Positions 559 to 63,538 of a stretch of DNA of 64,000 nucleotides are shown piece after piece. A model generated the notes under the pieces. The model saw only the letters and a program-made list of their open reading frames with translations, had not been told where the DNA came from and did not search any database. The DNA comes from Candidatus Parvarchaeota archaeon. Its GTDB lineage: Archaea > Nanobdellota > Nanobdellia > JAFCGN01. Made by a program: the position numbers and the translations under genes. The stretch's first letter is position 1. Every line of letters starts with the position of its first letter. The stretch covers positions 116,151 through 180,150 of the forward strand of contig JAFCGN010000002.1 of the NCBI GenBank assembly GCA_017608045.1, written 5' to 3'.

Positions 559-3066
559 TTAAAACAATTTAAGAAATTTTTCAGCTGTTTTTGTTAATTG
601 CTTTAAAGGAACTTTCCAATGCTGGGATACTTCAAATAATTTGTTTTCCACTTTTTGAATTTCTTCAATTGTTTTAAGCGGTTTTAAGGTTTCTGATTCT
701 TCTTTGATAAATTCTGCTTCTTTGCCTTTTCTTTTCTTTTTCCATTTTTCAAATAATTCTTTTGATTTTTCAGGCAAGTTATCTATTTTACATCCTAATA
801 ACTCGCAAAGTTTGTTTGCTTTTTTGACTAATTCATCTGAGAATTCTTTAACCCTTTTTCCTGCTATTAATTCAATTCTTACAACACTATCACTTATTTT
901 ACTTGAACCTATTATTTTTATTATTTCCGCGTCTTTTGTATTATCAAGATGCGTGCCACCGCATGCTTCAACATCCCAGTTCGGGATTTCCACAATTCTT
1001 ATCATTTTTCCAGGCACTGCTCCTCCTTGGTATATTGTGAATCCGTATTTTGCTTCAGCTTCATTTCTTGGAAGAACGAACTTGTTTATGCGTATTTTTT
1101 CTTTTATTATTTTGTTTGCTAAAGTTTCTATTTCAATTATTTCTTTTCTATTCAAGGATTTATAATGCGTGATGTCTAATCTTGCTTTTTCAACTGTTTT
1201 TTCAGCACCTGCCTGCCATACGTGTTTTCCAAGAACTTTTTTTGCAGCACCATTGATTATATGCACGCTTGTATGATGTTGTGTTAGTTGTTTCCTTCTT
1301 TGAATATCTACTTTTCCAATAACTTCTTCATTTTTTTCAGAATTAAATTCTCCTTCAATTTCATGAATGAAATGATTGCCTTGTTTGAATACTCTTACAA
1401 CCTTGAATTCTTTTCCATTTTTGATTAAAATGCCTTTATCACTATCCTGTCCGCCGCTTTTGCCATAAAATAAGGTTTTATTAAGAATAACATATTTCTT
1501 GTTTATCACTTTAAGAACTTTTGCTGTAAATTCAAGGTTTTCAAATGGTTTTTTGTCATAAAATAAGATTTCTGTTTCAGGAATGTCTCTTAAATCAAAT
1601 TCTTCTCTTTTTTTTATAATCTGTTTTTTTTCATGCAATGAAGTTATTTTTTGATAAAAATTAGTTGTTTTTGGTATCTTAACACCATTATTTTTTAAAA
1701 TCTCAGGACTTATTCCATGAGAGTCATATAAAATAATGAGGTCTTTTAATTCCAATTTCTTGTTTGCATATTTTTTAATTATTTTTTTGAATTTTTTTCT
1801 TGTTGCAATGTATTTTTCAATTTCATTTTTTAATATTTCTTTAACATCACTTGTTTTATCTTTAATTTCTGGGAATAGTTTTGCTGTTTCCTTTGTTTGC
1901 CATTCAATAATTTTTAGGAAGTCTAAATCAATTTTGTTTTTTCTTATAAAATCAAAAGCTCTTCTGAAAATAACTCTTAAGTTATAACCCCCCCCGCTAT
2001 TTGAAGGAAGAGTGCCGTCACCGATTGATATTATAAGACTTCTTGAATGTTCAGCAATACTATAAATAGCTTTTATTTTTTCAACTGCTTTTTTTAATTC
2101 ATTAACATCTACAGAAATTTTTTTAGAAATTTTTTTCCACGTTTTTTCTACATCTCTTGCTTCATCAATATTTAAAGAACCTGCTAAAAGAAAATAACGA
2201 TTTAAAACTTCGTTTTCTTTAAAATCAAATTCTTTTTTTAATTTGCTAATAGTATATGGAAAAACTGCATCATATGCAGTATTCGTGCCTTGCGTGAACC
2301 ATGGTATTCTTTCTAAACCCATTCCCATGTCTAAAACTTTTAAATTAAGATTTTCATACCCTTTGTCTGTTTGTTTGAATTGCATGTATACTTGATTTGC
2401 TAATTCAAGACCATGACTGAAGATTTCAATGCTTGGGCCAAAATTTCCACTTCCCGCCCATACATCTTCATGAAATTTTAAGTTTTCAAAATTAATGCCA
2501 ATACTTTTATTAAACCATGAAGAAAGATGGTCTAAGTATTCAGAAGGAGAGTAGTTTCTTGGTTTTTCAAATCTATGCTGACCAACCATGACAAAGCCTG
2601 TAAAATGTTTTCCTGTTACACCCACATTTTCAATGTCATTAAATCTTAAACAAAACTGAGGAACAATAAGTGGATTAGCAGGGGGTTCGCTAATTCCTTG
2701 TACTACAAATGGAATAAAATCATCAATACTTGCTTGTACAAAATATAAATCCTTTCTCCATCTTGCATTTACAGGATAACGTTTAATTTCTGCATACCCT
2801 AATTTTTTAAAATAATTGCTGAAATCTTTCCAAGCACTAACATATGTTAATTGTTTTTTACTTATTCTTTTGTTAATGAAGGAATATTTTTCTTCACAAT
2901 CGCCGCAAAATTCTTCATTTTTAATACTCCAAAAATATCGCCCGCATTTTTTACATTTTTTTCTTGTTAATCCATTCTTTTTAAAAAAATTAATAGGATA
3001 ATATTTTTCAGCATTTTTTGTAAAAATGTTTCCATATTTTTTTTTTAATTCTTTATCACTAAGCAT
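559..3066 (-). CDS. alaS: Alanyl-tRNA synthetase, archaeal type
   Basis: 835 aa. N-terminal Cys-rich zinc motif (CKKCGRYF...CGDC), class II core. C-terminal editing and C-Ala region with HHTSVH...H and CGGTH motifs. Confidence 0.88.
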   Translation of the reverse strand: MLSDKELKKKYGNIFTKNAEKYYPINFFKKNGLTRKKCKKCGRYFWSIKNEEFCGDCEEKYSFINKRISKKQLTYVSAWKDFSNYFKKLGYAEIKRYPVNARWRKDLYFVQASIDDFIPFVVQGISEPPANPLIVPQFCLRFNDIENVGVTGKHFTGFVMVGQHRFEKPRNYSPSEYLDHLSSWFNKSIGINFENLKFHEDVWAGSGNFGPSIEIFSHGLELANQVYMQFKQTDKGYENLNLKVLDMGMGLERIPWFTQGTNTAYDAVFPYTISKLKKEFDFKENEVLNRYFLLAGSLNIDEARDVEKTWKKISKKISVDVNELKKAVEKIKAIYSIAEHSRSLIISIGDGTLPSNSGGGYNLRVIFRRAFDFIRKNKIDLDFLKIIEWQTKETAKLFPEIKDKTSDVKEILKNEIEKYIATRKKFKKIIKKYANKKLELKDLIILYDSHGISPEILKNNGVKIPKTTNFYQKITSLHEKKQIIKKREEFDLRDIPETEILFYDKKPFENLEFTAKVLKVINKKYVILNKTLFYGKSGGQDSDKGILIKNGKEFKVVRVFKQGNHFIHEIEGEFNSEKNEEVIGKVDIQRRKQLTQHHTSVHIINGAAKKVLGKHVWQAGAEKTVEKARLDITHYKSLNRKEIIEIETLANKIIKEKIRINKFVLPRNEAEAKYGFTIYQGGAVPGKMIRIVEIPNWDVEACGGTHLDNTKDAEIIKIIGSSKISDSVVRIELIAGKRVKEFSDELVKKANKLCELLGCKIDNLPEKSKELFEKWKKKRKGKEAEFIKEESETLKPLKTIEEIQKVENKLFEVSQHWKVPLKQLTKTAEKFLKLF

Positions 3067-3158
3067 ATAGTGAGATATAAAAATAATTTATTTTAAAAAT
3101 ATTGTGAATCAATATAAAAAAAACATATTTAAAGAAGCTACGTTTATTATTAAATCAG

Positions 3159-3626
3159 GTGATTATAATTATGACAAAAAAAGCACAAGCAGCACTTGAA
3201 TACTTAATGACCTATGGTTGGGCAATATTGATTATAGCAATAATTGCAGGAGCACTTTATTATATGAATGTTTTCAGTAGTAGTTGTGATTCTCCAATTT
3301 CAACAGGATTTTCAGGTGTGGAAATTTTAAGCAATGATTTTGCCTTTACTTCAGAAGGTGATCTTGAGATTATACTGACAAATGCTGCAGCGGAAACAGT
3401 GCATATTCTAAATGTTACTGTTCAAAACGGAACATCTACAGATGTAGCAAATACAACAGCACTAACTCTTGACGCAGGAACTACAATAACATATACTTTT
3501 TCAGGATTAACAAGTCCTGGAAGTAAAGGAAGTTGTTATACAGAAGATGTTGCAATCTATTATACAAGAGGAGACTTAAGCACAATTTTCAAGAGCACAG
3601 GTTCATTAAGGCACGCAGTGCAGTAA
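3159..3626 (+). CDS. Archaeal type IV pilin-like protein (class III signal peptide)
   Basis: N-terminus MTKKAQAALEYLMTYGWAILIIAIIAGALYY is a classic archaeal prepilin signal (KK-AQAALEYL, then a hydrophobic helix). Small Thr/Asn-rich mature domain with N-x-S/T sequons. Confidence 0.75.
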   Translation: MIIIMTKKAQAALEYLMTYGWAILIIAIIAGALYYMNVFSSSCDSPISTGFSGVEILSNDFAFTSEGDLEIILTNAAAETVHILNVTVQNGTSTDVANTTALTLDAGTTITYTFSGLTSPGSKGSCYTEDVAIYYTRGDLSTIFKSTGSLRHAVQ

Positions 3627-3706
3627 AAAACCATTCTTTTTTTATTTTTTTTAAATAATTTGGTTAATTAGAAATGTTATTATTTCCAAATTAATTAAAC
3701 TACAAT

Positions 3707-4117
3707 ATGAAAAATAAAAACTCTCAAGTTGCTGTTGAATATTTGATTATGTTAGGCATAGTGCTTCTTGTATTTTCAGTTATGTGGGGTAGAGTAAGTC
3801 AGGTTGCCCAATTAACAAGAATAAATGTTCGCATAAGTAATGCAGAAACTTATCTTGAAAAATTGAAAACAAACATAGATTTAGTTAATTTTTATGGTGA
3901 GCCAACTAAAATAGAAATGATTGCTTATGTTCCTGATGGTATATCTTTTGTTAATCTCTCAAATAATGAAATAATTTTGGGTGTTGAAACAACAGCAGGA
4001 CAAACAATTATGGGTGTAAAAACAAGAGCCAATTTAAGTGGTATCCTGCCGTATAAGAGAGGGACTTACAGGGTTTTAATAAAAGCAGTTGGAGACGAAG
4101 TAAATTTAAGTTATTAA
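3707..4117 (+). CDS. Pilin-like protein (class III signal peptide)
   Basis: MKNKNSQVAVEYLIMLGIVLLVFSVMW: charged tip, Q-x-A-x-E-Y-L, hydrophobic helix. Second gene in the pilin run. Confidence 0.6.
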   Translation: MKNKNSQVAVEYLIMLGIVLLVFSVMWGRVSQVAQLTRINVRISNAETYLEKLKTNIDLVNFYGEPTKIEMIAYVPDGISFVNLSNNEIILGVETTAGQTIMGVKTRANLSGILPYKRGTYRVLIKAVGDEVNLSY

Positions 4118-4530
4118 TGGCGGGGGTTATAATGAAAAATAAAAAATCACAATCAACGATTGAGTTTATTGGTGTTTTTTCAATATTTTTAATTTTAACA
4201 AGTACTTTTTATTTGCTTTTTATAAATTATTCAAATAACATAATTAAAAAAAGAGCATATTTTCAAACAGAAAATTTATTAGAACTAATCTCTTCAAAAA
4301 TAAATACTGTTGTTTTAGAAGGAGATGGGTATAAAACAATATTGGATGTTCCGCATAAACTTCTTGGTTCTGATTATAATATTACAATTGAAGGAAATGT
4401 TCTTGTTTTAACACTTGACAAATACGGCATTTCTTTAACAAAAGAATTCCTGCCTGTAAATATTTCTGGAAAACTTAAGAAAGGAACCAATAATCTTAAA
4501 AATTTTAAAGGAGGAGTTGTGATTGAATAA
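4117..4530 (+). CDS. Pilin-like protein (class III signal peptide)
   Basis: MKNKKSQSTIEFIGVFSIFLILTSTFYLLF. Start overlaps the previous stop (TAATG). Confidence 0.5.
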   Translation: MAGVIMKNKKSQSTIEFIGVFSIFLILTSTFYLLFINYSNNIIKKRAYFQTENLLELISSKINTVVLEGDGYKTILDVPHKLLGSDYNITIEGNVLVLTLDKYGISLTKEFLPVNISGKLKKGTNNLKNFKGGVVIE

Positions 4531-5023
4531 AAAATCTCAATTGTTTAGCATTGATGTTGGAATAACATTTTTGGTTTTTGTAGGTTTTATTGTTATTTTT
4601 GTTAATTTATGGAATCAAAATGTTAGACAATTAGATGAAAGTTTGTTAAAACAGAATCTTCAAGAAAAAATTTCGTTTTATTCAGATTATCTTGTAAGAA
4701 CGAAAGGGTATCCTGAGGATTGGAATGCATCTAATGTTTTGCTCATTGGTTTTGCAGGAGATGAAGAAAACATTCTTTTAATTTCAAAAATAGAAAAATT
4801 TATGACACTCAATTATACTTTTGCGAGAAGTAAGATGAATTTAAATGGAAAAGAATTTTACTTAAAAATTATTGATGTTATAAACAACAAAACACTTTAT
4901 TCTTATGGAAACTTGAGTTATCAGAGTGCAACAAATTTAATTCAGATTACACGTTTTTGTCTTGTAAATGACAGTACAAAGTTGATTCCTTCAAAACTTT
5001 TGTTAGGGGTGTGGCAAGATTAG
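4523..5023 (+). CDS. Pilin-like protein (class III signal peptide); TTG start overlapping the upstream gene
   Basis: MNKKSQLFSIDVGITFLVFVGFIVIFVNLW: N-terminal KK plus hydrophobic helix. Confidence 0.5.
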   Translation: MNKKSQLFSIDVGITFLVFVGFIVIFVNLWNQNVRQLDESLLKQNLQEKISFYSDYLVRTKGYPEDWNASNVLLIGFAGDEENILLISKIEKFMTLNYTFARSKMNLNGKEFYLKIIDVINNKTLYSYGNLSYQSATNLIQITRFCLVNDSTKLIPSKLLLGVWQD

Positions 5024-5033
5024 AAAAACATTT

Positions 5034-6917
5034 TTGCATAAAAAAGCATTTATTTTTAGTTTAGAACTCCTTGTTGCTTTAAGCATAATTTTTTCTTCAA
5101 TTTATCTTTTAACAACTACAATTCCTTTTTTTGAAGATTCTTTAATAAAAGAAGAAAATCTAAATGTTATGGGGCAAGACTTGATGCAATTTATTACAAA
5201 AACAAGGATAAGTGATTTGCAAGACTTACAATTAGTTCAAGATTATCTCAATCTTGGTTTGATTGAATATAAGGATATAAATGCTTCGTTTGTTGATGTT
5301 ATAGGCACTTTTATGATACAAAACAAGTTTGATTATGCCAAGAATTTAACAGAAGAGGTTTTCGAAAAACTTATTCCAGATAATGTTGGTTATCAAGTTT
5401 ATTTTGATAATGTTTCAATAGCAAACAAGACAATAAGCAATCCTTCTTCAGAATTGACTTTAAAAACATTGTTAAGCGGGTATGCCTTAAATCGTTCTCT
5501 TGAAGGATATATTGCTCGCGCGTGGCTCAATCTTGCGTCATTCAATGAAACAAAAATAATAAGCATTTCTCCAATTGGAAGCGGGTTCAAAAATAATACT
5601 TGTGTTAAATGGTTATGGTGGTGGTGTACAAAAACTGTTGAAGGAGGTAATTTGACTATAGTGAAGAGTTTTGATATTCCTGCGGATATAGAAACTGTTG
5701 TTAATGCTGAACTAATGCTTTCAATTCATGAAGAAGGCGGAAGAGTCTGGATTTATGTGAATGATGTTCTTCAACACGAAGAATACTATGACGACAAAGT
5801 TTATGAAAGAATTCCAATACACAATGTAACTTCTGGGACTAATGTAATTAAAATTATTCAAGAGATGCCATCAAACTATCATGCGCACACACATCCCGGG
5901 TTTTTGTTGAAAGTGGATTATGTGAGAGTAAGAAGGTTAGGTTATAAAGAAAACAAGACAGTTGTTATTGATAAAAGATTTCCCGAGATAATTGCTTCTC
6001 CATCAGTTTGGGAAACTTTTTCTTTTGATATACCAAGAGGGGATAACATAACTAATGCCACTCTTCATTTAGAAGTTTTAAATGTTGATGATTGGGGGGA
6101 AATATGGGTGAATGATAATCAGGTTTGGGTAAATTCATCAGCACAAGGAAATATGACAATTGATTTGGATATACTTCCTTATGTGAATCACGAAAATAAT
6201 GTTTCAACAGGGGAGACGAATGTCATTGCCCCTTATTTTGATATAGAATCTCAAAATGATTACCCAACAGAAAATGCAAGAGGAAATATTATAATTTCAA
6301 ATAATTCATTTGTGCATCTTGAATATCAAAAACCTGAAACAATTCAAAAGTATGGACTCATACCCATTACGCATTCTTTTGAATTTGGGGGAACAGCAGA
6401 GAATGACAAGAGCGTGGAGTTTCCATTAAGTTATCATGAATTAATTAATGCATATGTGCATTTAGCCCAAATTTATAGTTGGAAAGTGGCGTTAGCTGCA
6501 TGGAATGAAAATCAAACTGCTCCAGTTTGGGATAATACATTAAAAGAATGGGTTCCTGAGGAAATGCAGTTTTTTAAATCATCTACTGGAAGAAATGTTC
6601 CTTCTTCTATATACATTCCAATAGACATGCTTGTTAAAAATTCAACAAATTATGTTGAGGCAAGAGATTTTGGAGGAACAGGAAACAAAATATTACCAGA
6701 AAGCACTATTGAATACACTTATTTAGCGCCAGCCCAAGTTGGTTACGCTGATGTTTATGAAACAGAAATACAAGCAATAAATGATGCTATAAATAGACTT
6801 CAAGAGTTAGTTGCTCCATATAACATTACAGGAGAAGTTAATTATTCTGTGTCCTCTGTAACAAATGTAAGATGGCTGTGGGGTCCTGCAGAGGTTAAGG
6901 TGGTGCTTTCAAGATGA
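5034..6917 (+). CDS. Large pilin-like surface protein or adhesin (class III signal-like N-terminus with ~600-aa sequon-rich ectodomain)
   Basis: HKKAFIFSLELLVALSIIFSSIYLL at the N-terminus. Very many N-x-S/T sequons (NAS, NLT, NVS, NKT, NVT, NIT, NAT, NSS, NMT...). TTG start. Confidence 0.5.
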   Translation: MHKKAFIFSLELLVALSIIFSSIYLLTTTIPFFEDSLIKEENLNVMGQDLMQFITKTRISDLQDLQLVQDYLNLGLIEYKDINASFVDVIGTFMIQNKFDYAKNLTEEVFEKLIPDNVGYQVYFDNVSIANKTISNPSSELTLKTLLSGYALNRSLEGYIARAWLNLASFNETKIISISPIGSGFKNNTCVKWLWWWCTKTVEGGNLTIVKSFDIPADIETVVNAELMLSIHEEGGRVWIYVNDVLQHEEYYDDKVYERIPIHNVTSGTNVIKIIQEMPSNYHAHTHPGFLLKVDYVRVRRLGYKENKTVVIDKRFPEIIASPSVWETFSFDIPRGDNITNATLHLEVLNVDDWGEIWVNDNQVWVNSSAQGNMTIDLDILPYVNHENNVSTGETNVIAPYFDIESQNDYPTENARGNIIISNNSFVHLEYQKPETIQKYGLIPITHSFEFGGTAENDKSVEFPLSYHELINAYVHLAQIYSWKVALAAWNENQTAPVWDNTLKEWVPEEMQFFKSSTGRNVPSSIYIPIDMLVKNSTNYVEARDFGGTGNKILPESTIEYTYLAPAQVGYADVYETEIQAINDAINRLQELVAPYNITGEVNYSVSSVTNVRWLWGPAEVKVVLSR

Positions 6918-9702: not shown

Positions 9703-10155
9703 ATGATAGAAACAAAAATTGACAAGTTGCTTTCTTTAGTTAATAAAAGCAAAAAAATTTCTTTAAGCGATGCAGCTGAAAAGTTAGCTGTTAGTGAAGA
9801 GCAAATTGAAGAATGGGCAATTTCTTTATCAAAAGACAATATTGTAAAGCTTGTTTATCCAACTAATTTGTTTGAACAGCCATATTTGGAAAGTGTTAAC
9901 GAAATAAGAAAACCTAAAATAAAAAAAACGCGTAAAAAGAAAAAAAATGTTCAAATCAAGGATACAATAAAAAAGGTTGTTAAAAGAGAGGAAAAATATA
10001 GAAAAGCAAGAAAAAAAGTGCATTTCAAAGCAAAAAAAAGAAAACTTGTTTATTTATGGTTTTTCACATTTCTTTTGCTTATAATTTTGTTATTTTTTAT
10101 TTTTAAAGAAAAAATATTTTATTTTTTAAAAATTTTAATTCAAAAGGTGAGATGA
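9703..10155 (+). CDS. Membrane-tethered winged-helix protein (N-terminal wHTH, Lys-rich linker, C-terminal TM helix)
   Basis: N-terminus KIDKLLSLVNKSKKISLSDAAEKLAVSEEQIEEWAISLSKDNIVKL is wHTH-like. Lys-rich linker KPKIKKTRKKKKN...KAKKRK. C-terminal helix LVYLWFFTFLLLIILLFFIF. Stop abuts the ATPase start. Confidence 0.4.
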   Translation: MIETKIDKLLSLVNKSKKISLSDAAEKLAVSEEQIEEWAISLSKDNIVKLVYPTNLFEQPYLESVNEIRKPKIKKTRKKKKNVQIKDTIKKVVKREEKYRKARKKVHFKAKKRKLVYLWFFTFLLLIILLFFIFKEKIFYFLKILIQKVR

Positions 10156-23302: not shown

Positions 23303-24625
23303 TTACATAGTTGGTTGGTTTTTGCAAGCGTATTCTCCTTCAAAACATTTTTTTAAAGAAAGACAGGTTGGAGCACTTAATTTGGCAAGATAGGTGTTTT
23401 TACTTTTAATTTCTTTATTTAATAAATTAAAAAATTCTCTTATTGATTTTTGAGCATTATTGCACGTTCTTACTCTGCTAACACGCACGTAATTATCAAA
23501 AGTTGTGGTACCATAGATTTCTGGAATAATTGTTCCTTGTGGGAATATGCTTGTTAAACAGTTTTTAATTTTTTCAAATCTTTTAGAATTAATAATTTCT
23601 TCAATAATATTTCTTGTTTCTTCTTGCATAAATTCAAAAAATTCTTCAATTAAATTAAAATTGGACATATCTAATGTGCTAAAACTCTTTGGAGTTGAAA
23701 AATGGTAATTTTTTGCAATTTCTTTGTTTTTTGTTCTTATAAGATGAAAACTTCTGTGTCTTATTAGTTGATTATATGTGAAAAAAGGCATTTCTTTAAA
23801 AATAAAAGATAATCTTCCAACTTTAAAAAACTCTGGAATCTTTTCTCTTGAAGAATTTACAATTTTTTCAAGATTAGTTTCATTTATTTCATAATTATTC
23901 ATCAAGCAATAATTTTTGAAAAGTTCTTTTTCGTCATCCATTGTTAAAATTGAACTTCTTGGTTTCCCATCTAACAAAAAACATTTATGCTCTTTAACTT
24001 CTATTTTTCTTTTTAAAATTAAAGGATATTTTGAATTGTATTCTTCGAAAGATTCAATTATTTCAGGCAAGTAATCCCTTGTTTGCTCCCAAACTTTATT
24101 AATAATCTTTTTTGTTTCCAAAGGCACCTCTAATAAATCTACTTCTCTTTTTAATGCAGCAATTTCTCTTAAACTCATATTTTCAATAATATTGCTTTTT
24201 ACTGCTTGCGGCAGAACCATTCTTGCTTCTTCAGAAGGTATCTTTTCTTTTAATTTGTTGTAAAGCGTTTCTGCTTTTTTAAAAAATTTTTTACAATCAA
24301 CAATGTCTTCAAGTTCATATATTTTTTCAAAAAATATTTCTTTTGATTCAAGTGCCTTTCTTTGACTTTGTTGTCCTGCAAAGTAATACTTGCTGTTCTC
24401 AAGTAATCCAAGAATTCCAGCACGACTTCCTATTATGTAAAAAGGAATTGGAACCTCTGCTGGTTCATGATGTCCAGCACAGATTGTTTTTAAGATAAGA
24501 GGGAGATTTTTTTCTCTATTATATGTTTGAGGCATTTTTTTTGATTGGCAGGTTCTTGTATTAATAAAAATTCTTTTTTCAATCTCGCGAGCTCTTGCTT
24601 TGCTTAACAAAACTTTGACTTTCAT
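23303..24625 (-). CDS. ThyX-like (flavin-dependent thymidylate synthase family) protein with two tandem ThyX-like domains. The first has lost the RHR motif.
   Basis: Domain 2 keeps the RHR motif (FTYNQLIRHRSFHL; compare ThyX WFRHRIASYNELS). Domain 1 has AGHHEPAEVP and ARMVLPQAV…NMSLREIAALKR, which parallel ThyX HGHETPFEH and ARIVLPLNLYT…NARSLMNFLNLR. Confidence 0.4.
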   Translation of the reverse strand: MKVKVLLSKARAREIEKRIFINTRTCQSKKMPQTYNREKNLPLILKTICAGHHEPAEVPIPFYIIGSRAGILGLLENSKYYFAGQQSQRKALESKEIFFEKIYELEDIVDCKKFFKKAETLYNKLKEKIPSEEARMVLPQAVKSNIIENMSLREIAALKREVDLLEVPLETKKIINKVWEQTRDYLPEIIESFEEYNSKYPLILKRKIEVKEHKCFLLDGKPRSSILTMDDEKELFKNYCLMNNYEINETNLEKIVNSSREKIPEFFKVGRLSFIFKEMPFFTYNQLIRHRSFHLIRTKNKEIAKNYHFSTPKSFSTLDMSNFNLIEEFFEFMQEETRNIIEEIINSKRFEKIKNCLTSIFPQGTIIPEIYGTTTFDNYVRVSRVRTCNNAQKSIREFFNLLNKEIKSKNTYLAKLSAPTCLSLKKCFEGEYACKNQPTM

Positions 24626-24704: not shown

Positions 24705-24980
24705 TTAATACTTTTTTTTCTTTAAATGAATGATTTTTTCTGCTATGATTTCAGAATCTTTATACTGAAATTTATTATTCTTACTAACTAATGAGTTAAT
24801 GTCTTCTTGATTATTACAATAAAAGTATTTTTTATAAAAACCTTTTTTGCAAATATTCCTTTGAATATCCAATGCCAGGTCATATCCTACCAAATTTTTT
24901 TCATTTTTTTTTGTTTTCACAATTTCTAAGTTTATTTTTTTGATATCATGTTTTTTACAGATTTCATCTAAGGTTGTCAT
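24705..24980 (-). CDS. Hypothetical 91-aa protein
   Basis: ORF only, between PurF and the ThyX-like gene on the same strand. Confidence 0.25.
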   Translation of the reverse strand: MTTLDEICKKHDIKKINLEIVKTKKNEKNLVGYDLALDIQRNICKKGFYKKYFYCNNQEDINSLVSKNNKFQYKDSEIIAEKIIHLKKKKY

Positions 24981-25034
24981 GTTAATTTATACAAAATGTT
25001 GTGTTTTTAAATTTTTTATTATGTTCATTTTTTT

Positions 25035-26453
25035 TTAAATAATTTTTTTAACAGCATTAAGCCATTTCATTTGCTCTTTTGCTTTTTCTTTTGCTAAAGG
25101 AGTAAAATATTTGTTAGTAAGGCAGGATTCACAAATATCTTCTAAACCAAGACTTTTTTTTAAGCAATCCCTACTTGCATAAAATAATTCATCAACTCCA
25201 ATATACTCTTTTATTTCTTCAACATTTTTTTCAAAAGCAACAAATTCATTGTAATTCCTCATATCTATTCCATAATAACAAGGTGCAATTATTTTTGGAC
25301 AAGTTATCCAAAGACCTATCTTCTTGGGTTTTGCTTCCTTCACCATTTCAATAATTGTTTTTGATGTGTTTCCTCTTACAATGCTGTCATCAACAAACAA
25401 GATTTTTTTATTAAAAATAACATCTTTCATAATGCTTAGTTTGCTTTTTACTGCTTTGCTTCTATCCTTTGGCATAATAAATGTTCTTGGTATATACCTA
25501 TTTTTTATTAATGCTTCTCGTATGGGCAAACCTGTGATTTCATTTATTCCTTCAGCAGCGGTTCTTGATGTGTCAGGAACAGGACTTATAAAATCGTAAT
25601 CAATGCTTTTGGGTTCTATTCTATTTTTCAAAGAATATTCTAATGCCATATTCTTTCCAAGATTAAACCTTGCCTCTCTTACGCTTTTTCCGTCAATCAC
25701 TGAATCAGGTCTGCTGAAATAAACAAATTCAAACATGCATTGTTTTGGAGTTGCTTTAACAATTTGTTTTTTCTTAATACTCCAATCTTTTATAATTATT
25801 AATTCTCCAGGCTTAACAGAAAAATATTTTCTAACATTATTCTTTATTAATGCAGGAGTTTCTGAAGCAATAATAAAACTATTTTCATTCATTCCATAAA
25901 CTAATGGATGAATGCCATATCTGTCTCTAAAAGCAAATAATTCATTATTTCCTGTAATCCCTATAACAGAATAAGCGCCTTCTAATTTGTTCATGCAAGT
26001 ATTCACTGCTTCTTCAAGAGTTTTATTATTTTTCAATTCTTCTGCTAAAATGTGTAGGATAACTTCATGATCTGCATCTGTTTGAAAAAGATTGCCTTTT
26101 CTTTTTAATTCTTCTTCTAATTCACTATAATTAACAATGTTTCCATTATGGCATAAACTTAGTCCATTCTTTACAGTATAAAGAATGCTTGGCTGTGCAA
26201 ACCTATCTATGAGTATTTCTTTTTTGCCAATTGTTGAATATCTTAAGTGCCCTATGCCTAAAATTCCTTCAGGATAATCTTCTAATTTTTTTTCAGTTAC
26301 AAGACCCTTATATTTTACTAAATTAAAGTTAATTCCGTCAAAAACAGCAACGCCATTTGCTTCTTGTCCTCTGTGCTGCAATTCAATTAATCCATAATAA
26401 AGAGTGTTTTTTACTCCAATTTCGTTTTTCCATACCCCTATAATCCCGCACAT
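25035..26453 (-). CDS. purF: Amidophosphoribosyltransferase
   Basis: N-terminal nucleophile MCGIIGVW (Ntn class II GATase). PRTase motif ILFVDDSIVRGNTSK. Confidence 0.85.
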   Translation of the reverse strand: MCGIIGVWKNEIGVKNTLYYGLIELQHRGQEANGVAVFDGINFNLVKYKGLVTEKKLEDYPEGILGIGHLRYSTIGKKEILIDRFAQPSILYTVKNGLSLCHNGNIVNYSELEEELKRKGNLFQTDADHEVILHILAEELKNNKTLEEAVNTCMNKLEGAYSVIGITGNNELFAFRDRYGIHPLVYGMNENSFIIASETPALIKNNVRKYFSVKPGELIIIKDWSIKKKQIVKATPKQCMFEFVYFSRPDSVIDGKSVREARFNLGKNMALEYSLKNRIEPKSIDYDFISPVPDTSRTAAEGINEITGLPIREALIKNRYIPRTFIMPKDRSKAVKSKLSIMKDVIFNKKILFVDDSIVRGNTSKTIIEMVKEAKPKKIGLWITCPKIIAPCYYGIDMRNYNEFVAFEKNVEEIKEYIGVDELFYASRDCLKKSLGLEDICESCLTNKYFTPLAKEKAKEQMKWLNAVKKII

Positions 26454-27224
26454 TTATCTTACCTTACAGGTTTTGAAGTATTTTTTTCCAATATTTTCAA
26501 ATTCCTCTAATTCTTCCTGAGTAAATGTTTTTTCTTTTTCATAAGAAGGGTCTAATGTTTTTATTGGTCTAAAATTTTGAATGTAAAAATTCACTTCTTT
26601 TCTTGTTTTTTCCTTTCCTATTAATTTGCTTATTTCTTCAAACATTTTTAAGATAAACTCTTTATTATGAAGTTTTGGTACGACAGTAGTTCTTAATTCA
26701 TATTTAAATTCCGGGTTTTTTTCAGAATATTTTGACAATATTAAAATGCTTTTTTTAATTAAATTCGTATTTATTTTCACACCTATTGTATTATTGTATT
26801 CTTCAAAACAATTTTTTATATCCATAGCAACATAATCAATTAGGTTTGAATTAAGTAAATCATTTAAAATGTCAGGAAAGCTTCCATTTGTATCTAACTT
26901 TACACCAAAACCCATTTTTTTTATTTCTTTACAAAAATTTTTTAATCCAGGACTTAAAGTTGGTTCTCCTCCTGTAATGCACACACCATCAAGCCATTTT
27001 TTTCTTGTTTTTAAAAAATCAAAAAATTCTTTTTCCTCTATGTTTTTTGTTTTTTCAGGATGTATAACTAATTCAGGATTATGACAGAAAGGGCATCTAA
27101 AATTGCAATAACCAAGAAAAACTGTTGAACAAATTTTTTCAGGCCAATCAATTAAACTTGTTTTGATAAATCCTTTTAATGGAAGGAATTTTTTATTACC
27201 TCCATTTTTTTCTTTATTATTCAT
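26454..27224 (-). CDS. nrdG: Anaerobic ribonucleotide reductase activating protein (radical SAM)
   Basis: CNFRCPFCHN (CX3CX2C radical-SAM motif) and GGEPTL. Immediately downstream of nrdD and the grx-like gene. Confidence 0.75.
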   Translation of the reverse strand: MNNKEKNGGNKKFLPLKGFIKTSLIDWPEKICSTVFLGYCNFRCPFCHNPELVIHPEKTKNIEEKEFFDFLKTRKKWLDGVCITGGEPTLSPGLKNFCKEIKKMGFGVKLDTNGSFPDILNDLLNSNLIDYVAMDIKNCFEEYNNTIGVKINTNLIKKSILILSKYSEKNPEFKYELRTTVVPKLHNKEFILKMFEEISKLIGKEKTRKEVNFYIQNFRPIKTLDPSYEKEKTFTQEELEEFENIGKKYFKTCKVR

Positions 27225-27484
27225 ATGTTATTATCCTCTAACCATTTTTTAATTTCTTCAAGCGTTGGAGGTTTGCCTCTCCATGCTTTTTTTTCTTCAT
27301 CATTGTGCGTTATTATTATGCTTGGCGTGCTCATTACATTATGGATTGTTGCTTCTGTAAGTCCATTTAAAGACTCTATGTCATGAAACGCAACATTATG
27401 TCCTTCATCTTTCAAAATATTTCCTATTTTTTTTGCTTCAGGGCAGTTTGGACAGCCCTCTTTCCAAAAAATTTTTATTTCCAT
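27221..27484 (-). CDS. Glutaredoxin/NrdH-like small redoxin
   Basis: 87 aa. CPNCP active site near the N-terminus. Lies between nrdD and nrdG with 4-nt overlaps. Confidence 0.6.
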   Translation of the reverse strand: MEIKIFWKEGCPNCPEAKKIGNILKDEGHNVAFHDIESLNGLTEATIHNVMSTPSIIITHNDEEKKAWRGKPPTLEEIKKWLEDNNI

Positions 27485-27487
27485 TTT

Positions 27488-30127
27488 TTAACACCCTTTT
27501 ATTTCAGTTTGGAGCAGGCTATAATTTCCTTTTTTTCTGTCTTTCAGTTCTGCTAATTTACTTTTATTCCAATTATTGTATTCTTTGTCTTCTTTTTTGC
27601 CTTTTATTACTGAATAATACCCAACAACCCTGCTCATACCATAAACATTTTCACTGCCACAATATGGACATTTCATGTTTTCTTCATTAAACCCTGCACT
27701 TACTTTATGACATTCCTCGCAAACAGTAAATTCAGGGCTTATTACGATTTGAGCAGATTGCGTGTTTTCCCATGTTCTTTTTACAAGATTAAAAATGCTT
27801 TCTGCTGAAGGTCTTTCTTCACCTACAAAAACATGTGTTATTGCACCGCTCTCAATTAGAGGATTAAATCTTGCTTGTTTTTCAATTCTTTCTAATATAT
27901 CTATATTCGCATCTGGTTCAAAATGTATGCTGTTAGTATAATAAACCTCACCTGTTTTAATATTGCCTTTAACAAGAGGTTTTGCTTGCTCAGGATAATT
28001 TCTTAAATCCATTGTTGCTAAACGCAATGAAGCGCTTTCTGCTGGCGTTTCTTCAAGACTTATTTTTAAACCTGTTTTCTTTTCTAACTCTTTTATTTTT
28101 AGATACATTGAAGAAATAATTTTAATTCCAAGCTTGTAAGCTTCTTCGCTTTCATGCAAAGCTTTTCCTGTTAAATGTTTAACGCATTCATTTAAACCTA
28201 TTATTCCAATTATATATGTGGCTTTATCTAAATCAATATATGGTTCTCCGTCAGGACCTATTTTTCCAACTTGCCATAATGGTGCTTCGGGTTTACTCAT
28301 TAATTTTTCTATAAACTTTCTTTTCTGGAAGTGCGCTTTCATTGCTAAGTCAATCATTTTGTTTAATTCTTTTAGCGTTCCATCCACTGTTTTGCCCCTA
28401 TACGCTGCTTGAGGAAGATTTATACTTACATTCTGAAATCCACAAAATCTTAATTTTTCAGGGTGTTTCAATACTTCAGGGTTTTCAACTTTTGTTCTTA
28501 ATCTGCAACACGCACTTAATACAACATCATCTCTGTCAAAAACAAAATAAGTTGAACCATTTTTGCTTGAAACCTCGCATGCTCTCATAAGAAGTTTTTT
28601 TTGCACAGGGTCTTCAAAAGAATTTTGGTTTATGTGTAAATCAAGTTTTGGAAAAGGGAAAGGTTTTCCATAAGCATCTCCTTCTTCCCAAACATCCATC
28701 AATGCTTTAGCAAAAGCTTGGGCTTCAGGTTCAAAATCTTGATAAGTTAAAACTTTGTACCCTTGCGGGATTTTTTTTGGGATTTCATCAACATAAATTA
28801 TTTCATCCCCTTTTTCAAGCATATATTTTCCTCCTTTTCCAATTGCAGGAACATTTTTTAAATGTTGAGGCACTTCTAAATGAACATTAAAATCAATAAA
28901 AAGTGTTTGCCCTCCTCTTGAAAAAGCATTTTGGCTGCACGAAAAAATAAGGTATTGTGCTTCTTGTTTTAGTTGTTTTTCTGACATGCCTTTTAAAAAA
29001 GGAGCATAAAAGATATTCACATGGCTTATGCCTAATGCTCCGGCGTAGTATGCTTGCATGGTTGCTAAAAATGTATTTAAATGACCTGTAAGAGTTTGAG
29101 CATGCTTTGCAGGAGAAGAATCAGTTGTTAAGTTTTCTAAATGCAATCCAAATTTTTTTAAATATTCTAAGCTATGCGCACTGCAATACACTCTTATTGG
29201 ATAACCTAAATCATGAAGATATATTTTTCCCGACAAATGCGCATCACTGACTTCTTCACTAAATATTTCTTGAAGAGCATATTGCTTTAATGTGTTTTCT
29301 GCAATTGCTAAATTGATTGCTTCTGGATTGTTTGCCATCACATTACTGTTTTCATTGCTTTTGCTAAAAATCAATTGATTTAAATTATAGGTTGGCATTC
29401 CAAGAAGAGTGTGTTTTTGTATTTTTTTATCATAACCCCTCATTAATAATTCATTATCTATCAGTTCTCTAATTAAATTTACAGTTATTGTCTTTATGCC
29501 TGTTGCAATAATTTTTTTTTCTACACTATCAGCAATATCTTCTGCCTGTTCTTTTTGAACTCTTACTTCTTTTATTAAAGAGCTTATTATTCTCTTTTTA
29601 TTCCAGGGAGATAAATAACCTTTGCGCGTTGTTGCTACAAGAAGCAAATCTGTTGTATCCCCTTCTTCAACTTCTTTTATAACTTTTAATTCATCAAGAG
29701 CCTTTTCATATGATTTTAAATCTGTAAATTCTTTGTACACGCTTGCAAATCTTACATAAGCAACTTTATCAACTTTTTTTAATTCTTCAATAACTAAATC
29801 ACCAATTACAGAGCTTTTGATTTCTTCTTTATCCATTTTTAAAAGTTCTTTTTCTACATTATCCACAATCTTATTTATTTGTTCAATAGTGACAGGACGT
29901 TTTTTGCAAGCTTCAATAACCCCTCTTTTTATTTTATTTCTGTCAAATTGTTCTCTGCTATTATCTTTTTTAATAACAAGTATGTTTGTTAATTCTGCTC
30001 TTTCATATGTTGTAAATCTTCTTTTGCATGAGAGGCATTCTCTTCTGCGTCTATTAGTATTAATTTCAGACCCAACACCTCTTTTATCAACAACTCTTGT
30101 CTCCCCACCGCAATAAGGACATCTCAA
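27488..30127 (-). CDS. nrdD: Anaerobic (class III) ribonucleoside-triphosphate reductase with an N-terminal full-length NrdR-like module (Zn ribbon + ATP cone). TTG start.
   Basis: Residues 1-~150 match NrdR (MRCPYCGG…RRRRECLSCKRRFTTYE…KVDKVAYVRFASVY). NrdD core follows, then glycyl radical motif SRVVGYY and C-terminal CxxC…CxxC. GGTGG sits 5 nt upstream of the TTG. Confidence 0.85.
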   Translation of the reverse strand: MRCPYCGGETRVVDKRGVGSEINTNRRRRECLSCKRRFTTYERAELTNILVIKKDNSREQFDRNKIKRGVIEACKKRPVTIEQINKIVDNVEKELLKMDKEEIKSSVIGDLVIEELKKVDKVAYVRFASVYKEFTDLKSYEKALDELKVIKEVEEGDTTDLLLVATTRKGYLSPWNKKRIISSLIKEVRVQKEQAEDIADSVEKKIIATGIKTITVNLIRELIDNELLMRGYDKKIQKHTLLGMPTYNLNQLIFSKSNENSNVMANNPEAINLAIAENTLKQYALQEIFSEEVSDAHLSGKIYLHDLGYPIRVYCSAHSLEYLKKFGLHLENLTTDSSPAKHAQTLTGHLNTFLATMQAYYAGALGISHVNIFYAPFLKGMSEKQLKQEAQYLIFSCSQNAFSRGGQTLFIDFNVHLEVPQHLKNVPAIGKGGKYMLEKGDEIIYVDEIPKKIPQGYKVLTYQDFEPEAQAFAKALMDVWEEGDAYGKPFPFPKLDLHINQNSFEDPVQKKLLMRACEVSSKNGSTYFVFDRDDVVLSACCRLRTKVENPEVLKHPEKLRFCGFQNVSINLPQAAYRGKTVDGTLKELNKMIDLAMKAHFQKRKFIEKLMSKPEAPLWQVGKIGPDGEPYIDLDKATYIIGIIGLNECVKHLTGKALHESEEAYKLGIKIISSMYLKIKELEKKTGLKISLEETPAESASLRLATMDLRNYPEQAKPLVKGNIKTGEVYYTNSIHFEPDANIDILERIEKQARFNPLIESGAITHVFVGEERPSAESIFNLVKRTWENTQSAQIVISPEFTVCEECHKVSAGFNEENMKCPYCGSENVYGMSRVVGYYSVIKGKKEDKEYNNWNKSKLAELKDRKKGNYSLLQTEIKGC

Positions 30128-30141
30128 AAAACCACCCTAAT

Positions 30142-30157
30142 ATACAATATCTTGTGT
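30142..30157 (-). promoter_or_regulatory. NrdR-box-like imperfect palindrome upstream of the nrdD start
   Basis: Reverse complement ACACAAGATATTGTAT versus recalled NrdR box consensus acaCwAtATaTwGtgt: 14/16 positions. Lies 15-30 nt upstream of the TTG start. Confidence 0.3.
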
Positions 30158-30286
30158 TCAATTTTTTGATTGAACCACAATCTTAAACAATAAATCAATT
30201 TTACTCTTTTCTTGTTTATATTCTTTTATATATTATAGAAAGCAATTATTGAGTAATAGTTACACTTAAACTGAAAAATGTTTGAA

Positions 30287-60769: not shown

Positions 60770-63391
60770 TTAAGCTTTGTTCTTTATGTTTGCCTGCGCT
60801 GCACTGATTCTTGCTATTGGAACTCTATAAGGACTGCATGACACATAGTCAAGTCCGATTTTGTGGCAGAACTCAATGCTTTTTGGTTCGCCTCCATGTT
60901 CTCCGCAAATGCCAATTTTTAGGTTTTTTCTTGTTTTTCTTCCAAGTTCTAATCCTATTTTGACTAATTTTCCAACGCCTTTTCTGTCTAAGACTTGAAA
61001 TGGGTCATATTCAAAAATGTCTTTTTCAAGATATTCTGGTATGAATTTACCAACATCGTCTCTTGAAAATCCAAAAGTTGTTTGTGTTAGGTCGTTTGTG
61101 CCAAAACTAAAAAACTCTGCTTCTTGTGCAATTTCATCAGCAGTCAGAGCAGCTCTTGGAAGTTCAATCATGGTCCCAATTTTATATTTTAAATTTATGT
61201 TATATTTCTTAATAATTTCTTTTGCTTTGTTTTCTACAATCTTTTTTACAATTCTTAATTCTTCTTTTGAAGAAACAAGAGGTATCATGATTTCTGGTTC
61301 TATATTAAGTCCTTGTTGTTTTAATTCGCATGCAGCTTCAATAATTGCTTGTGTTTGCATTTCATAAATTTCTGGAAAAGTTATTGCTAATCTGCATCCT
61401 CTGTGTCCAAGCATTGGATTTATTTCTTTTAGTTGTTCTATTTTTTCAAGAAGCTTTTGAGGAGAAACACTCATGCTTTCAGATACTTCTTGAATTTCTT
61501 CCATTGTTTGAGGTAAAAATTCATGCAAAGGAGGGTCAAGCAGTCTTATAGTAACAGGAAGTTCTTCCATTACTTTAAATAATCCAATGAAGTCTCCTTT
61601 TTGCATAGGAAGCAATTTTTTAAGTGCTTTTTCCCTTTCTTCTCTTGTGTCTGATAAAATCATTTCTCTTACTGCAACAATCCTGTCTCCTTGAAAAAAC
61701 ATGTGTTCTGTTCTGCAAAGTCCAATGCCTTCTGCACCAAATTCTTTTGCAATTCGTGCATCATGCGGCGTGTCTGCATTTGTTAATACCTTTAATTTTC
61801 TGAATTCATCTGACCATAGCAATATTTTTTTAAACTCTTCTGAAAGTTCAGGTTCAACAAGAGGGAGTGCTCCAATAAAAACTTCTCCTGTGTTTCCATC
61901 AAGAGAAATAATATCTCCTTCTTTAACAAGTGTTGAACCAACAAGGAAAGATTTGTTTTTTTCATCAAAAACAATTTCCCCTGCACCTGTTATGCAACAT
62001 TTACCCATGCCTCTTGCAACTACTGCTGCGTGAGATGTCATCCCGCCTCTTGCTGTTAATACTCCTTCTGAGACAGCCATTCCTTTTATGTCTTCAGGCG
62101 AGGTTTCTAATCGCACTAAAATAACTTTTTTACCTTGTTTTGATTTTTCTTCAGCATCTTGGGCAGAAAAAACAACTTCACCTACTGCTGCTCCAGGTGA
62201 TGCTGGAAGTCCTTTTGTTAATTTTTTTGCCTTTTGTTTTGCAAGATCATCAAGCTGTTTGTGAAGTAGTTGGTTTATTTGTTTTGGATTTATTTTTAAA
62301 AGTGCAGTTTCCTTATCAATTAGTCCTTCTTTCTCCATGTCTACTGCAATTTTTATTGATGCCTTTGCTGTTCTTTTACCTACTCTTGATTGAAGTATGT
62401 ATAGTTTTTTATTCTCAATTGTAAATTCAATGTCAAGCATGTCTTTATAATGGTTTTCAAGTTTTTTTCCTATTTTTACAAGTTCTTCATATACTTTTGG
62501 CATAATTTTTTTTAATTCTTCAATCTCAATTGGAGTTCTTATTCCAGCTACAACATCTTCTCCTTGCGCATTAATTAGAAATTCTCCGTAAAACTCGTTT
62601 TTTCCTGTTGAAGGGTTTCTTGTGAAACACACGCCTGTTCCAGACGTTTCTCCTGTGTTTCCGAAAACCATTGCTTGGATATTTACTGCAGTGCCTAACA
62701 AACCTTTAATATTATTCAATTTTCTATAAATTATTGCTCTTTCATTATTCCATGAATCAAAAACAGCATCAATTGCTAAAAAAAGTTGTTCTTCTGGATT
62801 TTGAGGAAATTCTTTTCCTGTTTTTTCATAAACCACTTTTTTATATTCATTAATTATTTCTTTTAATTCTTCAGTTGTTAATTCAACATCGTATTTAACT
62901 CCTTTTGTTTCTTTTATTTTTTCAAGAATATCTTCAAAAGATTTATGTTCTATTTTCATTACTACATTTCCAAACATTTGTATGAACCTTCTATAACTAT
63001 CGTAAGCAAACCTTTCATTGTTTGTTTTTTTGGCAAGTCCTTGAACGCTTTTATCATTTAATCCTAAATTTAAAACTGTGTCCATCATTCCAGGCATTGA
63101 AACTGCTGCCCCACTTCTAACAGAAATTAATAAGGGATTTTCAAAGTCTCCAAATTTTTTGTTCATTTTCTCTTCAAGTCTTTTTAAATTAAATAGGATT
63201 TTTTCTTTTAGTCCTTCAGGATATTTTTTATTGTGTTCATTATAATATTTGCATACTTCTGTTGTTATTGTAAAACCAGGCGGAACAGGTATGCCTAAAT
63301 TAGTCATCTCATTTAAACCAGCACCTTTTCCACCAAGCAAATTTTTTAATTTTAGGTTTCCTTCACCAAAAAAATAAATCATTTTTTCCAT
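60770..63391 (-). CDS. ppdK: Pyruvate, phosphate dikinase
   Basis: N-terminus MEKMIYFFGEGNLKLKNLLGGKGAGLNEM. Phospho-His GGMTSHAAVVARGMGKCCITG. C-terminal PEP-utilizing TIM barrel (LGHRGCRL…FFSFGTNDLTQ). 873 aa. Confidence 0.9.
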   Translation of the reverse strand: MEKMIYFFGEGNLKLKNLLGGKGAGLNEMTNLGIPVPPGFTITTEVCKYYNEHNKKYPEGLKEKILFNLKRLEEKMNKKFGDFENPLLISVRSGAAVSMPGMMDTVLNLGLNDKSVQGLAKKTNNERFAYDSYRRFIQMFGNVVMKIEHKSFEDILEKIKETKGVKYDVELTTEELKEIINEYKKVVYEKTGKEFPQNPEEQLFLAIDAVFDSWNNERAIIYRKLNNIKGLLGTAVNIQAMVFGNTGETSGTGVCFTRNPSTGKNEFYGEFLINAQGEDVVAGIRTPIEIEELKKIMPKVYEELVKIGKKLENHYKDMLDIEFTIENKKLYILQSRVGKRTAKASIKIAVDMEKEGLIDKETALLKINPKQINQLLHKQLDDLAKQKAKKLTKGLPASPGAAVGEVVFSAQDAEEKSKQGKKVILVRLETSPEDIKGMAVSEGVLTARGGMTSHAAVVARGMGKCCITGAGEIVFDEKNKSFLVGSTLVKEGDIISLDGNTGEVFIGALPLVEPELSEEFKKILLWSDEFRKLKVLTNADTPHDARIAKEFGAEGIGLCRTEHMFFQGDRIVAVREMILSDTREEREKALKKLLPMQKGDFIGLFKVMEELPVTIRLLDPPLHEFLPQTMEEIQEVSESMSVSPQKLLEKIEQLKEINPMLGHRGCRLAITFPEIYEMQTQAIIEAACELKQQGLNIEPEIMIPLVSSKEELRIVKKIVENKAKEIIKKYNINLKYKIGTMIELPRAALTADEIAQEAEFFSFGTNDLTQTTFGFSRDDVGKFIPEYLEKDIFEYDPFQVLDRKGVGKLVKIGLELGRKTRKNLKIGICGEHGGEPKSIEFCHKIGLDYVSCSPYRVPIARISAAQANIKNKA

Positions 63392-63538
63392 TTTTTACGC
63401 CTCCGCTAAATATAGTGGTTGAAAAAAGCAGAAATGCTTTATAAATTTTAATGGTGGATAAAGCAAGTTTGAAGAAAAGTAAAAAATAATAAGAAAGAGG
63501 GTAATAGTTTATAAATTAGGAAATAATAAATTTAACCA

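Follow-up and report, generated by a model that had tools for sequence, protein, structure and literature searches.

The 64-kb stretch of contig JAFCGN010000002.1 from a Candidatus Parvarchaeota archaeon that was analysed here (the window) contains a gene in which a full-length homolog of the transcriptional repressor NrdR continues in frame into NrdD, the catalytic subunit of class III ribonucleotide reductase (RNR). The fusion is a real, old and widespread archaeal architecture and no peculiarity of the window. A match to the NrdR box, the operator of free-standing NrdR, lies just upstream of the start codon. From these features we estimate a probability of roughly 55% that a single polypeptide is both the catalytic subunit of a class III RNR and a self-repressing NrdR repressor. 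Coordinates are collected in Table 1.

Profile searches divide the 879-aa protein into four parts: a zinc ribbon, an ATP-cone (cone R), a weak second ATP-cone (cone B) and the NrdD core. The first-pass annotation, made from the sequence alone, had described the N-terminal ~150 residues as a complete NrdR, and the profile match does run from end to end and above the curated cut-off. Residues 1-147 cover 147 of the 147 positions of the NCBIfam NrdR equivalog model TIGR00244 with 172.4 bits (cut-off 124.65), and the TTG start of the open reading frame (ORF) aligns with residue 1 of NrdR proteins. The module and E. coli NrdR share 45% identity over 141 aa. In a PDB sequence search NrdR is matched with E = 1e-36, and the whole 879-aa protein finds its top sequence matches among NrdR entries. 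Free-standing NrdR has ~150-200 aa; here the frame runs on into NrdD, to 879 aa.

The zinc ribbon carries two CxxC pairs (C3, C6, C31 and C34), invariant among relatives. In the structure of S. coelicolor NrdR on DNA, R12, R26-29 and R37 contact the backbone, while D15 and R17 reach into the major groove (PMC9110341); counterparts of all these residues are present in the window protein (R11, D14, R16, R26-29 and R37). Nucleotide binding by cone R is predicted from the conserved residues K53, K54, E59, F61 and K65. The cone ends with the NrdR-type motif VAYVRFASVY and is the only canonical ATP-cone in the 879-aa protein. When 104 fused modules are aligned with 118 free NrdRs, the DNA-contact positions, the four cysteines and the ATP-cone residues prove equally conserved in both sets. 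By these marks the NrdR module looks functional.

The remainder of the protein was likewise read correctly at first pass as an NrdD core, entered without a stop codon and closed by a C-terminal CxxC...CxxC and the glycyl-radical motif SRVVGYY: the junction is continuous, NrdD profiles score above their curated cut-offs, and both motifs are found in the sequence. The active-site cysteine loop reads LSACCRL, with S538, C540, C541 and R542 invariant in 26 relatives; an SCCR-type loop motif is that of the T. maritima-like NrdD (PMC4493059). The solved NrdDs are all remote from this core in sequence, and alignments to them are limited to the C-terminal third. Searches by Foldseek with an AlphaFold model of the 879-aa protein matched both NrdD and NrdR structures, and gave E-values from 1e-18 to 4e-27 for the NrdDs of P. 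copri, T. maritima and T4. In this model (mean predicted local distance difference test, pLDDT, 73) the ribbon, both cones and the core are folded, and residues 146-172 fall below 50. The linker of ~27 residues is predicted to be a flexible tether between the NrdR module and the rest.

Table 1. Positions of the fused gene, its domains and signals, its neighbors and other candidate sites in the window
Feature	Position	Strand	Evidence or remark
Fused nrdR-nrdD gene	27488..30127	-	one ORF, 879 aa, TTG start
NrdR zinc ribbon, residues 1-42	30002..30127	-	Pfam PF22811 (Zn_ribbon_NrdR), 49.6 bits, cut-off 27.2
NrdR-type ATP-cone (cone R), residues 50-136	29720..29980	-	81.9 bits alone against PF03477
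Junction/linker, residues 146-172 (LKVIKEVEEGDTTD...)	29612..29692	-	BLASTP against P0112; AlphaFold pLDDT <50
Degenerate second ATP-cone (cone B), residues ~163-232	29432..29641	-	36.4 bits against PF03477; lacks K-[KR]-D-G
Class III RNR (NrdD) core, residues 259-866	27530..29353	-	PF13597 (NRDD) 433.6 bits; TIGR02487 421 bits, cut-off 326
C-terminal Cys4 site (C803, C806, C820, C823) and glycyl-radical motif SRVVGYY (G836)	27614..27721	-	
Shine-Dalgarno-like GGGTGG	30132..30137	-	5 nt 5' of TTG; read directly from the sequence
NrdR box ACACAAGATATTGTAT	30142..30157 (read 30157..30142)	-	14 nt 5' of the start codon, immediately 5' of the Shine-Dalgarno-like sequence
Palindrome GTTCAAT-N6-ATTGAAC	30156..30175	.	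present, unique in the window
Thioredoxin-fold redoxin, 87 aa, CPNC	27221..27484	-	Pfam Thioredoxin_3 PF13192, 41.7 bits
NrdG activase (radical SAM)	26454..27224	-	TIGR02495 189.3 bits, cut-off 131
purF-like amidophosphoribosyltransferase	25035..26453	-	abuts nrdG, no gap
Second NrdR-box-like site ACACAACATTTTGTAT	24989..25004	-	16.3 bits, second best in the window
Third NrdR-box-like site CCACTATATTTAGCGG	63403..63418		14.3 bits, 12 nt 5' of an 873-aa ORF (60770..63391, -)

Comparison with NrdD proteins that are encoded apart from NrdR shows what the fusion replaced. The split-type NrdD P0112 (785 aa) consists of a canonical cone A, which reads YIKKRDGKIVAFDKEK...SYILYRDRR, then a degenerate cone B, then the core. 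Cone R of the fusion holds the position of this cone A yet barely resembles it. By BLASTP, strong homology to P0112 begins at 'LKVIKEVEEGDTTDLLLV', aligned with 'LKVRKEVREDADSTDLSLLV', so that NrdD homology picks up again in the fusion at the inter-cone linker motif 'LKVxKEV..D[ST]TDL'. Cone B is shared: neither the fused nor the split forms have the basic K-[KR]-D-G motif in it, and the consensus of the fused relatives shows a cone B without the basic residues, the same degenerate cone as in P0112. Because the NrdR cone occupies the position of cone A, the fusion must have deleted both the nrdR stop codon and the regulatory cone that belonged to NrdD.

The fused frame might be an error of sequencing or assembly, with neighboring nrdR and nrdD genes joined by a frameshift or by loss of a stop codon. 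This reading had to be considered, since the two genes lie only a few bases apart in related bacteria and in four loci labelled archaeal. The evidence refutes it and leaves it hardly any probability. An ENA contig and a Logan contig assembled from a different run (L088, L089) each encode a 99%-identical protein of 879 aa, and the promoter region is identical on both of these independent contigs. By tblastn against one-per-species GTDB genomes, a continuous ORF of 793-890 aa occurs at 22 archaeal loci, and a collection of 5.8 billion proteins holds more than 100 clusters (90% identity) that combine PF22811, PF03477 and PF13597, with source names including Aenigmatarchaeota, Micrarchaeota, Asgard/Heimdallarchaeota and Bathyarchaeia. 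The junction, where the first-pass annotation had asked for a check, is continuous in the two independent assemblies, in the 22 GTDB archaeal genomes and in the clusters, with no stop or frameshift. Moreover, the fusion is without the ~100-aa cone A found in every split NrdD examined, and loss of a stop codon alone cannot yield that.

Bacteria were a candidate second home for the fusion, as tblastn matched query residues 1-871 in Planctomycetota, Omnitrophota and others, and were rejected: the ORF check found adjacent genes in 47 of 47 bacterial loci. At these split loci, in Brocadia and other Planctomycetota, Omnitrophota, Nitrospirota and others, an nrdR of 148-171 aa ends in a stop codon and is followed by a ribosome-binding site and then nrdD; the four loci labelled archaeal have the same arrangement. 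A low-resolution neighbor-joining tree of the NrdD core places the fused genes on an archaeal branch and the split operons mainly on a bacterial branch. The ancestor was probably an nrdR-nrdD operon, an arrangement still kept in related bacteria and in the few loci labelled archaeal, in which an in-frame fusion removed the N-terminal regulatory cone of NrdD and installed the zinc ribbon and the NrdR cone instead.

Further variation was seen in the NrdD part of relatives. In 20 of 22 fused relatives (L002-L023) the glycyl-radical domain (CxxCGS..VYGxSRVVGY[FY]) is detached: a small gene for 52-99 aa, with a start codon to itself, encodes it just downstream of nrdD and in any of the three frames relative to nrdD; in the window and in L001 the domain is fused in frame. 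One literature search gave no description of an NrdD whose glycyl-radical subunit is encoded apart. L024, from uncultured archaeon LFW-252_1, has an in-frame TGA ~1557 nt into nrdD, at the first cysteine of the invariant SxCCRL loop (...TLSA-TGA-CRLKTK), which may stand for selenocysteine, be recoded otherwise or reflect an error of sequencing. The fused proteins P0083, P0089 and P0099 reach 1323-1383 aa, and their NrdD core contains intein and LAGLIDADG domains (PF14890, PF14528).

A real fused gene could still yield separate proteins. If the linker were proteolyzed, or if translation initiated internally, the single ORF would give two products and would be functionally the ancestral nrdR-nrdD operon. 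The ~27-residue low-confidence linker does part the NrdR module from the rest, and within the linker region a purine-rich GAAGGGG is followed by a TTG codon (L162). The enzyme is divided otherwise in relatives, with nrdR separate in bacteria and the glycyl-radical gene separate in 20 of 22 fused loci; because relatives encode these parts separately, they can work as separate chains. A released NrdD part, however, would be without a canonical ATP-cone, and the removal of cone A speaks for use of cone R in cis. Fused and split forms both conserve the linker motif D[ST]TDL at the protein level, which marks it as coding and not as a leftover ribosome-binding site, and nothing points to a cleavage motif. 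We regard two products as quite improbable.

Upstream of the gene, the first-pass annotation had noted a palindrome agreeing with 14 of 16 positions of the NrdR box consensus. The count is right, and ACACAAGATATTGTAT is the only site in the 64-kb window with no more than two mismatches. A weight matrix was built from 24 boxes upstream of other loci labelled archaeal, with the window left out. This independently trained matrix gives ACACAAGATATTGTAT 19.5 bits, the top score in the window, where sites of at least 19 bits are expected at a mean of 0.003 per window (300 dinucleotide shuffles). An A/T-rich stretch lies upstream of the box and the Shine-Dalgarno sequence directly downstream. Judged by its sequence, the palindrome is a genuine NrdR box.

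The box recurs at orthologous nrdD genes, as the first-pass annotation would have it. Within 300 nt upstream, a box of at least 7 bits is present in 26 of the 27 loci labelled archaeal. By a count of mismatches, 19 of 28 regions (the 27 loci plus the window) have a box with three or fewer within 200 nt upstream, compared to 0.33% of background 200-nt windows. Most of the orthologous loci labelled archaeal have pairs of boxes, and the centres of neighboring boxes lie 31-33 bp from each other 17 times and 41 bp twice, the distances of bacterial operator spacing. Split bacterial operons show the same box pattern.

Boxes also accompany other RNR genes next to fused genes. In L011 (Woesearchaeota) a perfect NrdR box, ACACAATATATTGTGT, in the region 2370..2417 overlaps the start of a class II nrdJ gene (1060 aa, 2414..5596) directly upstream of the fused nrdR-nrdD, with a weak partner box 32 bp upstream of the perfect one; no separate nrdR was found in this 14.8-kb locus. 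L003 (2568..5674) and L012, also Woesearchaeota, each have a class I nrdB-nrdA operon divergent from the fused gene; between the two lies a further pair of NrdR boxes that belongs to the class I operon, at a distance of 32 bp from one another. The NrdB, of 461 aa, has an N-terminal ATP-cone.

The first-pass annotation had offered a self-repressing enzyme and an allosteric sensor as alternatives. Because the NrdR module replaced the canonical ATP-cone of the enzyme, the two may not be alternatives at all. We infer DNA binding by the fusion, its nucleotide dependence and an allosteric role for the cone from the sequence features described above. In the mechanism proposed, dATP (together with ATP) would load the NrdR cone, and the zinc ribbons of an NrdD dimer, or of a dATP-induced tetramer, would clamp the NrdR box; a dimer would give two ribbons for one box, a tetramer four for two boxes. 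Occupancy of the box just 5' of the Shine-Dalgarno sequence would block transcription of nrdD-trx-nrdG-purF, and the outcome would be negative autoregulation by deoxynucleoside triphosphate (dNTP) status. Archaeal repressors typically block RNA polymerase recruitment from comparable positions, and by its position, 14 nt 5' of the start and below an A/T-rich stretch, the box would suit such a block. Cone R would probably act as an ATP/dATP on/off switch for catalysis as well, because the cone that it replaced does so in relatives and because it is the only canonical ATP-cone left.

Several observations weigh against self-repression by the fusion. Only one box was detected upstream of nrdD in the window, with no partner above 0 bits, whether at 31-33 or 41 bp from ACACAAGATATTGTAT or otherwise; a partner candidate read by hand 33 bp upstream of the box, TTGTTTAAGATTGTGG, matches only 8 of 16 positions and was rejected. 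NrdR boxes normally come as a pair separated by 15-16 bp. Bacterial NrdR needs two boxes for high-affinity binding, and the spacers that bacterial NrdRs require are 14-17 and 24-27 bp (PMC12051234). The position of the promoter relative to the box is a prediction. The AlphaFold model is of moderate confidence (pLDDT 73) and monomeric, and is silent on how four zinc ribbons would assemble. A wider NrdR regulon in the window organism is doubtful: the second-best site, ACACAACATTTTGTAT, is missing in the sister strain (L088, 98% nucleotide identity), where the intergenic segment between the purF-like gene and the following 91-aa ORF is replaced by unrelated sequence. Finally, free NrdRs 55-63% identical to the module exist in Woesearchaeota, Aenigmatarchaeota, Nanoarchaeota and Micrarchaeota, and a separate NrdR elsewhere in the genome, beyond the 64 kb, could be the protein that binds the box.

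On this last point rests the explanation that the fused module is only an allosteric or oligomerization sensor of ATP and dATP, while the boxes are bound in trans by free NrdR. The view of the genome here is 64 kb, and the NrdR cone sits exactly where the split-type NrdD has its activity-regulating cone. The same phyla have free NrdRs of ~150 aa, which resemble the module no less than other fused modules do and are predicted to regulate nrdJ operons that carry box pairs. The two forms cannot be compared in abundance from the protein search with residues 1-151, an unfair sample in which only free NrdRs of ~150 aa were listed and no fused protein, not even the 99%-identical P0001. Against binding in trans, the zinc-ribbon residues that contact DNA, for which no allosteric role is known, are as conserved in the 104 fused modules as in free repressors. 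A search of the 64 kb of the window and of the first 80 related loci found no second NrdR copy, and a free nrdR is likewise missing from the 22 fused loci and the ~6 kb to either side of each; the class I and class II RNR operons with boxes beside fused genes (L003, L011, L012) have no nrdR of their own. In those DPANN archaea that do have a free nrdR, the gene belongs to the nrdJ operon, downstream of a box pair, and this placement suggests that fused and free forms are complementary. DPANN genomes are small, and two copies of NrdR would be redundant there. We consider an exclusively allosteric role for the fused module unlikely.

A more ambitious form of self-repression by the fusion, with a single ATP-cone gating both catalysis and promoter binding, is held only tentatively, at somewhat short of even odds for its three parts taken together. 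First, the dATP-inhibited anaerobic reductase would itself be the repressor. Second, in organisms with several RNRs the fusion would control class I and class II operons in trans (compare L003, L011 and L012). Third, in the window genome a single NrdD dimer with its two zinc ribbons would suffice for a single-box operator by an archaeal core promoter. In that case, repressor logic of a bacterial type would be acting on archaeal transcription machinery.

Several known systems come close to the fusion. The free NrdRs of E. coli (PDB 9fvr) and S. coelicolor (PDB 7p37, 7p3f) resemble the fusion in zinc ribbon and ATP-cone, zinc ligands and DNA-contact residues. They use the same 16-bp box consensus, and relatives of the fusion share the box spacing of 31-33 and 41 bp. 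Unlike free NrdR, the fused module lacks a separate C-terminal tail, forms one covalent chain with the enzyme that it would regulate, rides on an obligate-dimer scaffold of ~100 kDa and, in the window genome, has a single-box operator. Its host, unlike those of bacterial free NrdRs, is an archaeon with a TBP/TFB-type promoter. The split nrdR-nrdD(-trx)-nrdG operons of Planctomycetota/Brocadia, Omnitrophota and other bacteria, and of L025-L029 labelled archaeal, encode an orthologous NrdD clade whose core shows 52-60% identity. Like the fusion they have boxes upstream and a degenerate cone B, and in L087 a thioredoxin-fold gene and a radical-SAM activase follow nrdD. They differ in the stop codon of nrdR and in the canonical cone A with which NrdD starts, both of which are gone in the window gene.

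The NrdDs of P. copri (PDB 8p23, 8p28) and S. thermophilus (PDB 9d3x), like the fusion, have an N-terminal ATP-cone before the core and a C-terminal zinc site and glycyl-radical domain, and the fold match of the fusion to P. copri NrdD has E = 4e-27. In these enzymes dATP leads to tetramers and inhibition, ATP to active dimers, states known from the P. copri structures (PMC11226230). The fusion differs from both enzymes in that its canonical cone is of NrdR type and carries a predicted DNA-binding zinc ribbon, and in that a degenerate second cone intervenes before the core. Movement of an ATP-cone has produced new RNR regulation before, in the NrdB of Leeuwenhoekiella blandensis with its fused N-terminal ATP-cone (PMC5794259), and a similar ATP-cone-NrdB adjoins the fused nrdD in L003 and L012. 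In L. blandensis, though, the cone alone moved, to the radical-generating subunit, and no DNA-binding domain came with it.

Trigger enzymes such as PutA and BirA unite enzyme and repressor in one polypeptide. The fusion is like them, at the sequence level only, in having catalytic and DNA-binding domains in one chain and an operator at its own gene. It is unlike them in that there is no homology and in that it has a domain devoted to nucleotide binding as its sensor, where trigger enzymes use the active site.

Neither full-text searches nor targeted reading of papers on NrdR and class III RNR brought up an NrdR-NrdD fusion, and no experimental data on the fused architecture were found in the literature searched. 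Fused proteins stand in public annotation as 'anaerobic ribonucleoside-triphosphate reductase' or as 'transcriptional regulator NrdR'; the sequences are not new, and it is the fused arrangement that appears to be undescribed. The literature treats NrdR as essentially bacterial and free-standing; papers give it as 'rare in archaea', and the latest figure is 22% of archaeal genomes (PMC12176259, PMC13584703). The finding that a large part of archaeal NrdR is fused to a class III reductase alters the picture of NrdR as bacterial and free-standing. The fusion replaced the enzyme's own regulatory cone, and a bacterial operator architecture has been preserved before archaeal genes. If the fusion binds its operator, it would be a natural protein that uses a single nucleotide-sensing domain for feedback on both its activity and its synthesis. 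The fusion would then be a tractable system for studying how a zinc-ribbon repressor acts on a TBP/TFB promoter and how oligomerization driven by an ATP-cone is coupled to two outputs, with the split and fused forms, found side by side, as natural controls.

The fused gene is followed on the same strand by the genes for the thioredoxin-fold protein, NrdG and the purF-like protein, with overlaps or gaps of at most 4 nt. The first-pass annotation had placed nrdG and a glutaredoxin-like gene in the operon. This stands for nrdG, identified by TIGR02495, but the second label does not, as the Glutaredoxin model scores below cut-off and a thioredoxin fold fits better. A thioredoxin-fold gene follows nrdD in L087 and L088 also. 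The 87-aa redoxin is a candidate reductant of NrdD, which suggests a redoxin-dependent subtype. The purF-like gene probably belongs to the nrd operon, and is an unusual partner of RNR genes in an apparently small-genome archaeon; its product has 484 aa in the sister strain and 472 aa in the window, the 3' end differing. The host is an archaeon with ~29% G+C, and MCM and RFC genes lie just upstream. An Rfam scan of the window gave no match.

A second palindrome reported at first pass, GTTCAAT-N6-ATTGAAC, is indeed present, although its significance did not hold up: such inverted repeats occur in 22-32% of 159-nt stretches of the same composition. With no relatives in the window and a C...G spacing unlike that of the NrdR box, it was rejected as a regulatory element.

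Three sites in the window reach at least 14 bits with the box matrix, against 0.19 expected from shuffles, and 0.06 sites of at least 16 bits are expected per window. The second, ACACAACATTTTGTAT, is statistically notable and would make good biological sense; it lies 8 nt 5' of the 91-aa ORF (24705..24980, -), after which comes a 440-aa ThyX (Thy1) homolog (23303..24625, -; PF02511, 3.6e-21). The flanks of the segment replaced in L088 have 97.5-98.5% nucleotide identity to the window, and membership of orf91-thyX in an NrdR regulon is uncertain. The third, CCACTATATTTAGCGG, is marginal and precedes an ORF whose product, identified by eye, we take to be pyruvate phosphate dikinase. Neither of these two sites is claimed as part of a regulon. 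Among related loci, L023 (Heimdallarchaeota) has an NrdR-box-like site of 14.9 bits at 9963..9978, 53 nt 5' of a gene for a eukaryotic-type topoisomerase IB (Pfam Topoisom_I_N), a location reminiscent of topA in Pseudomonas aeruginosa, for which an NrdR box has been reported (bioRxiv 10.1101/2025.03.28.645925).

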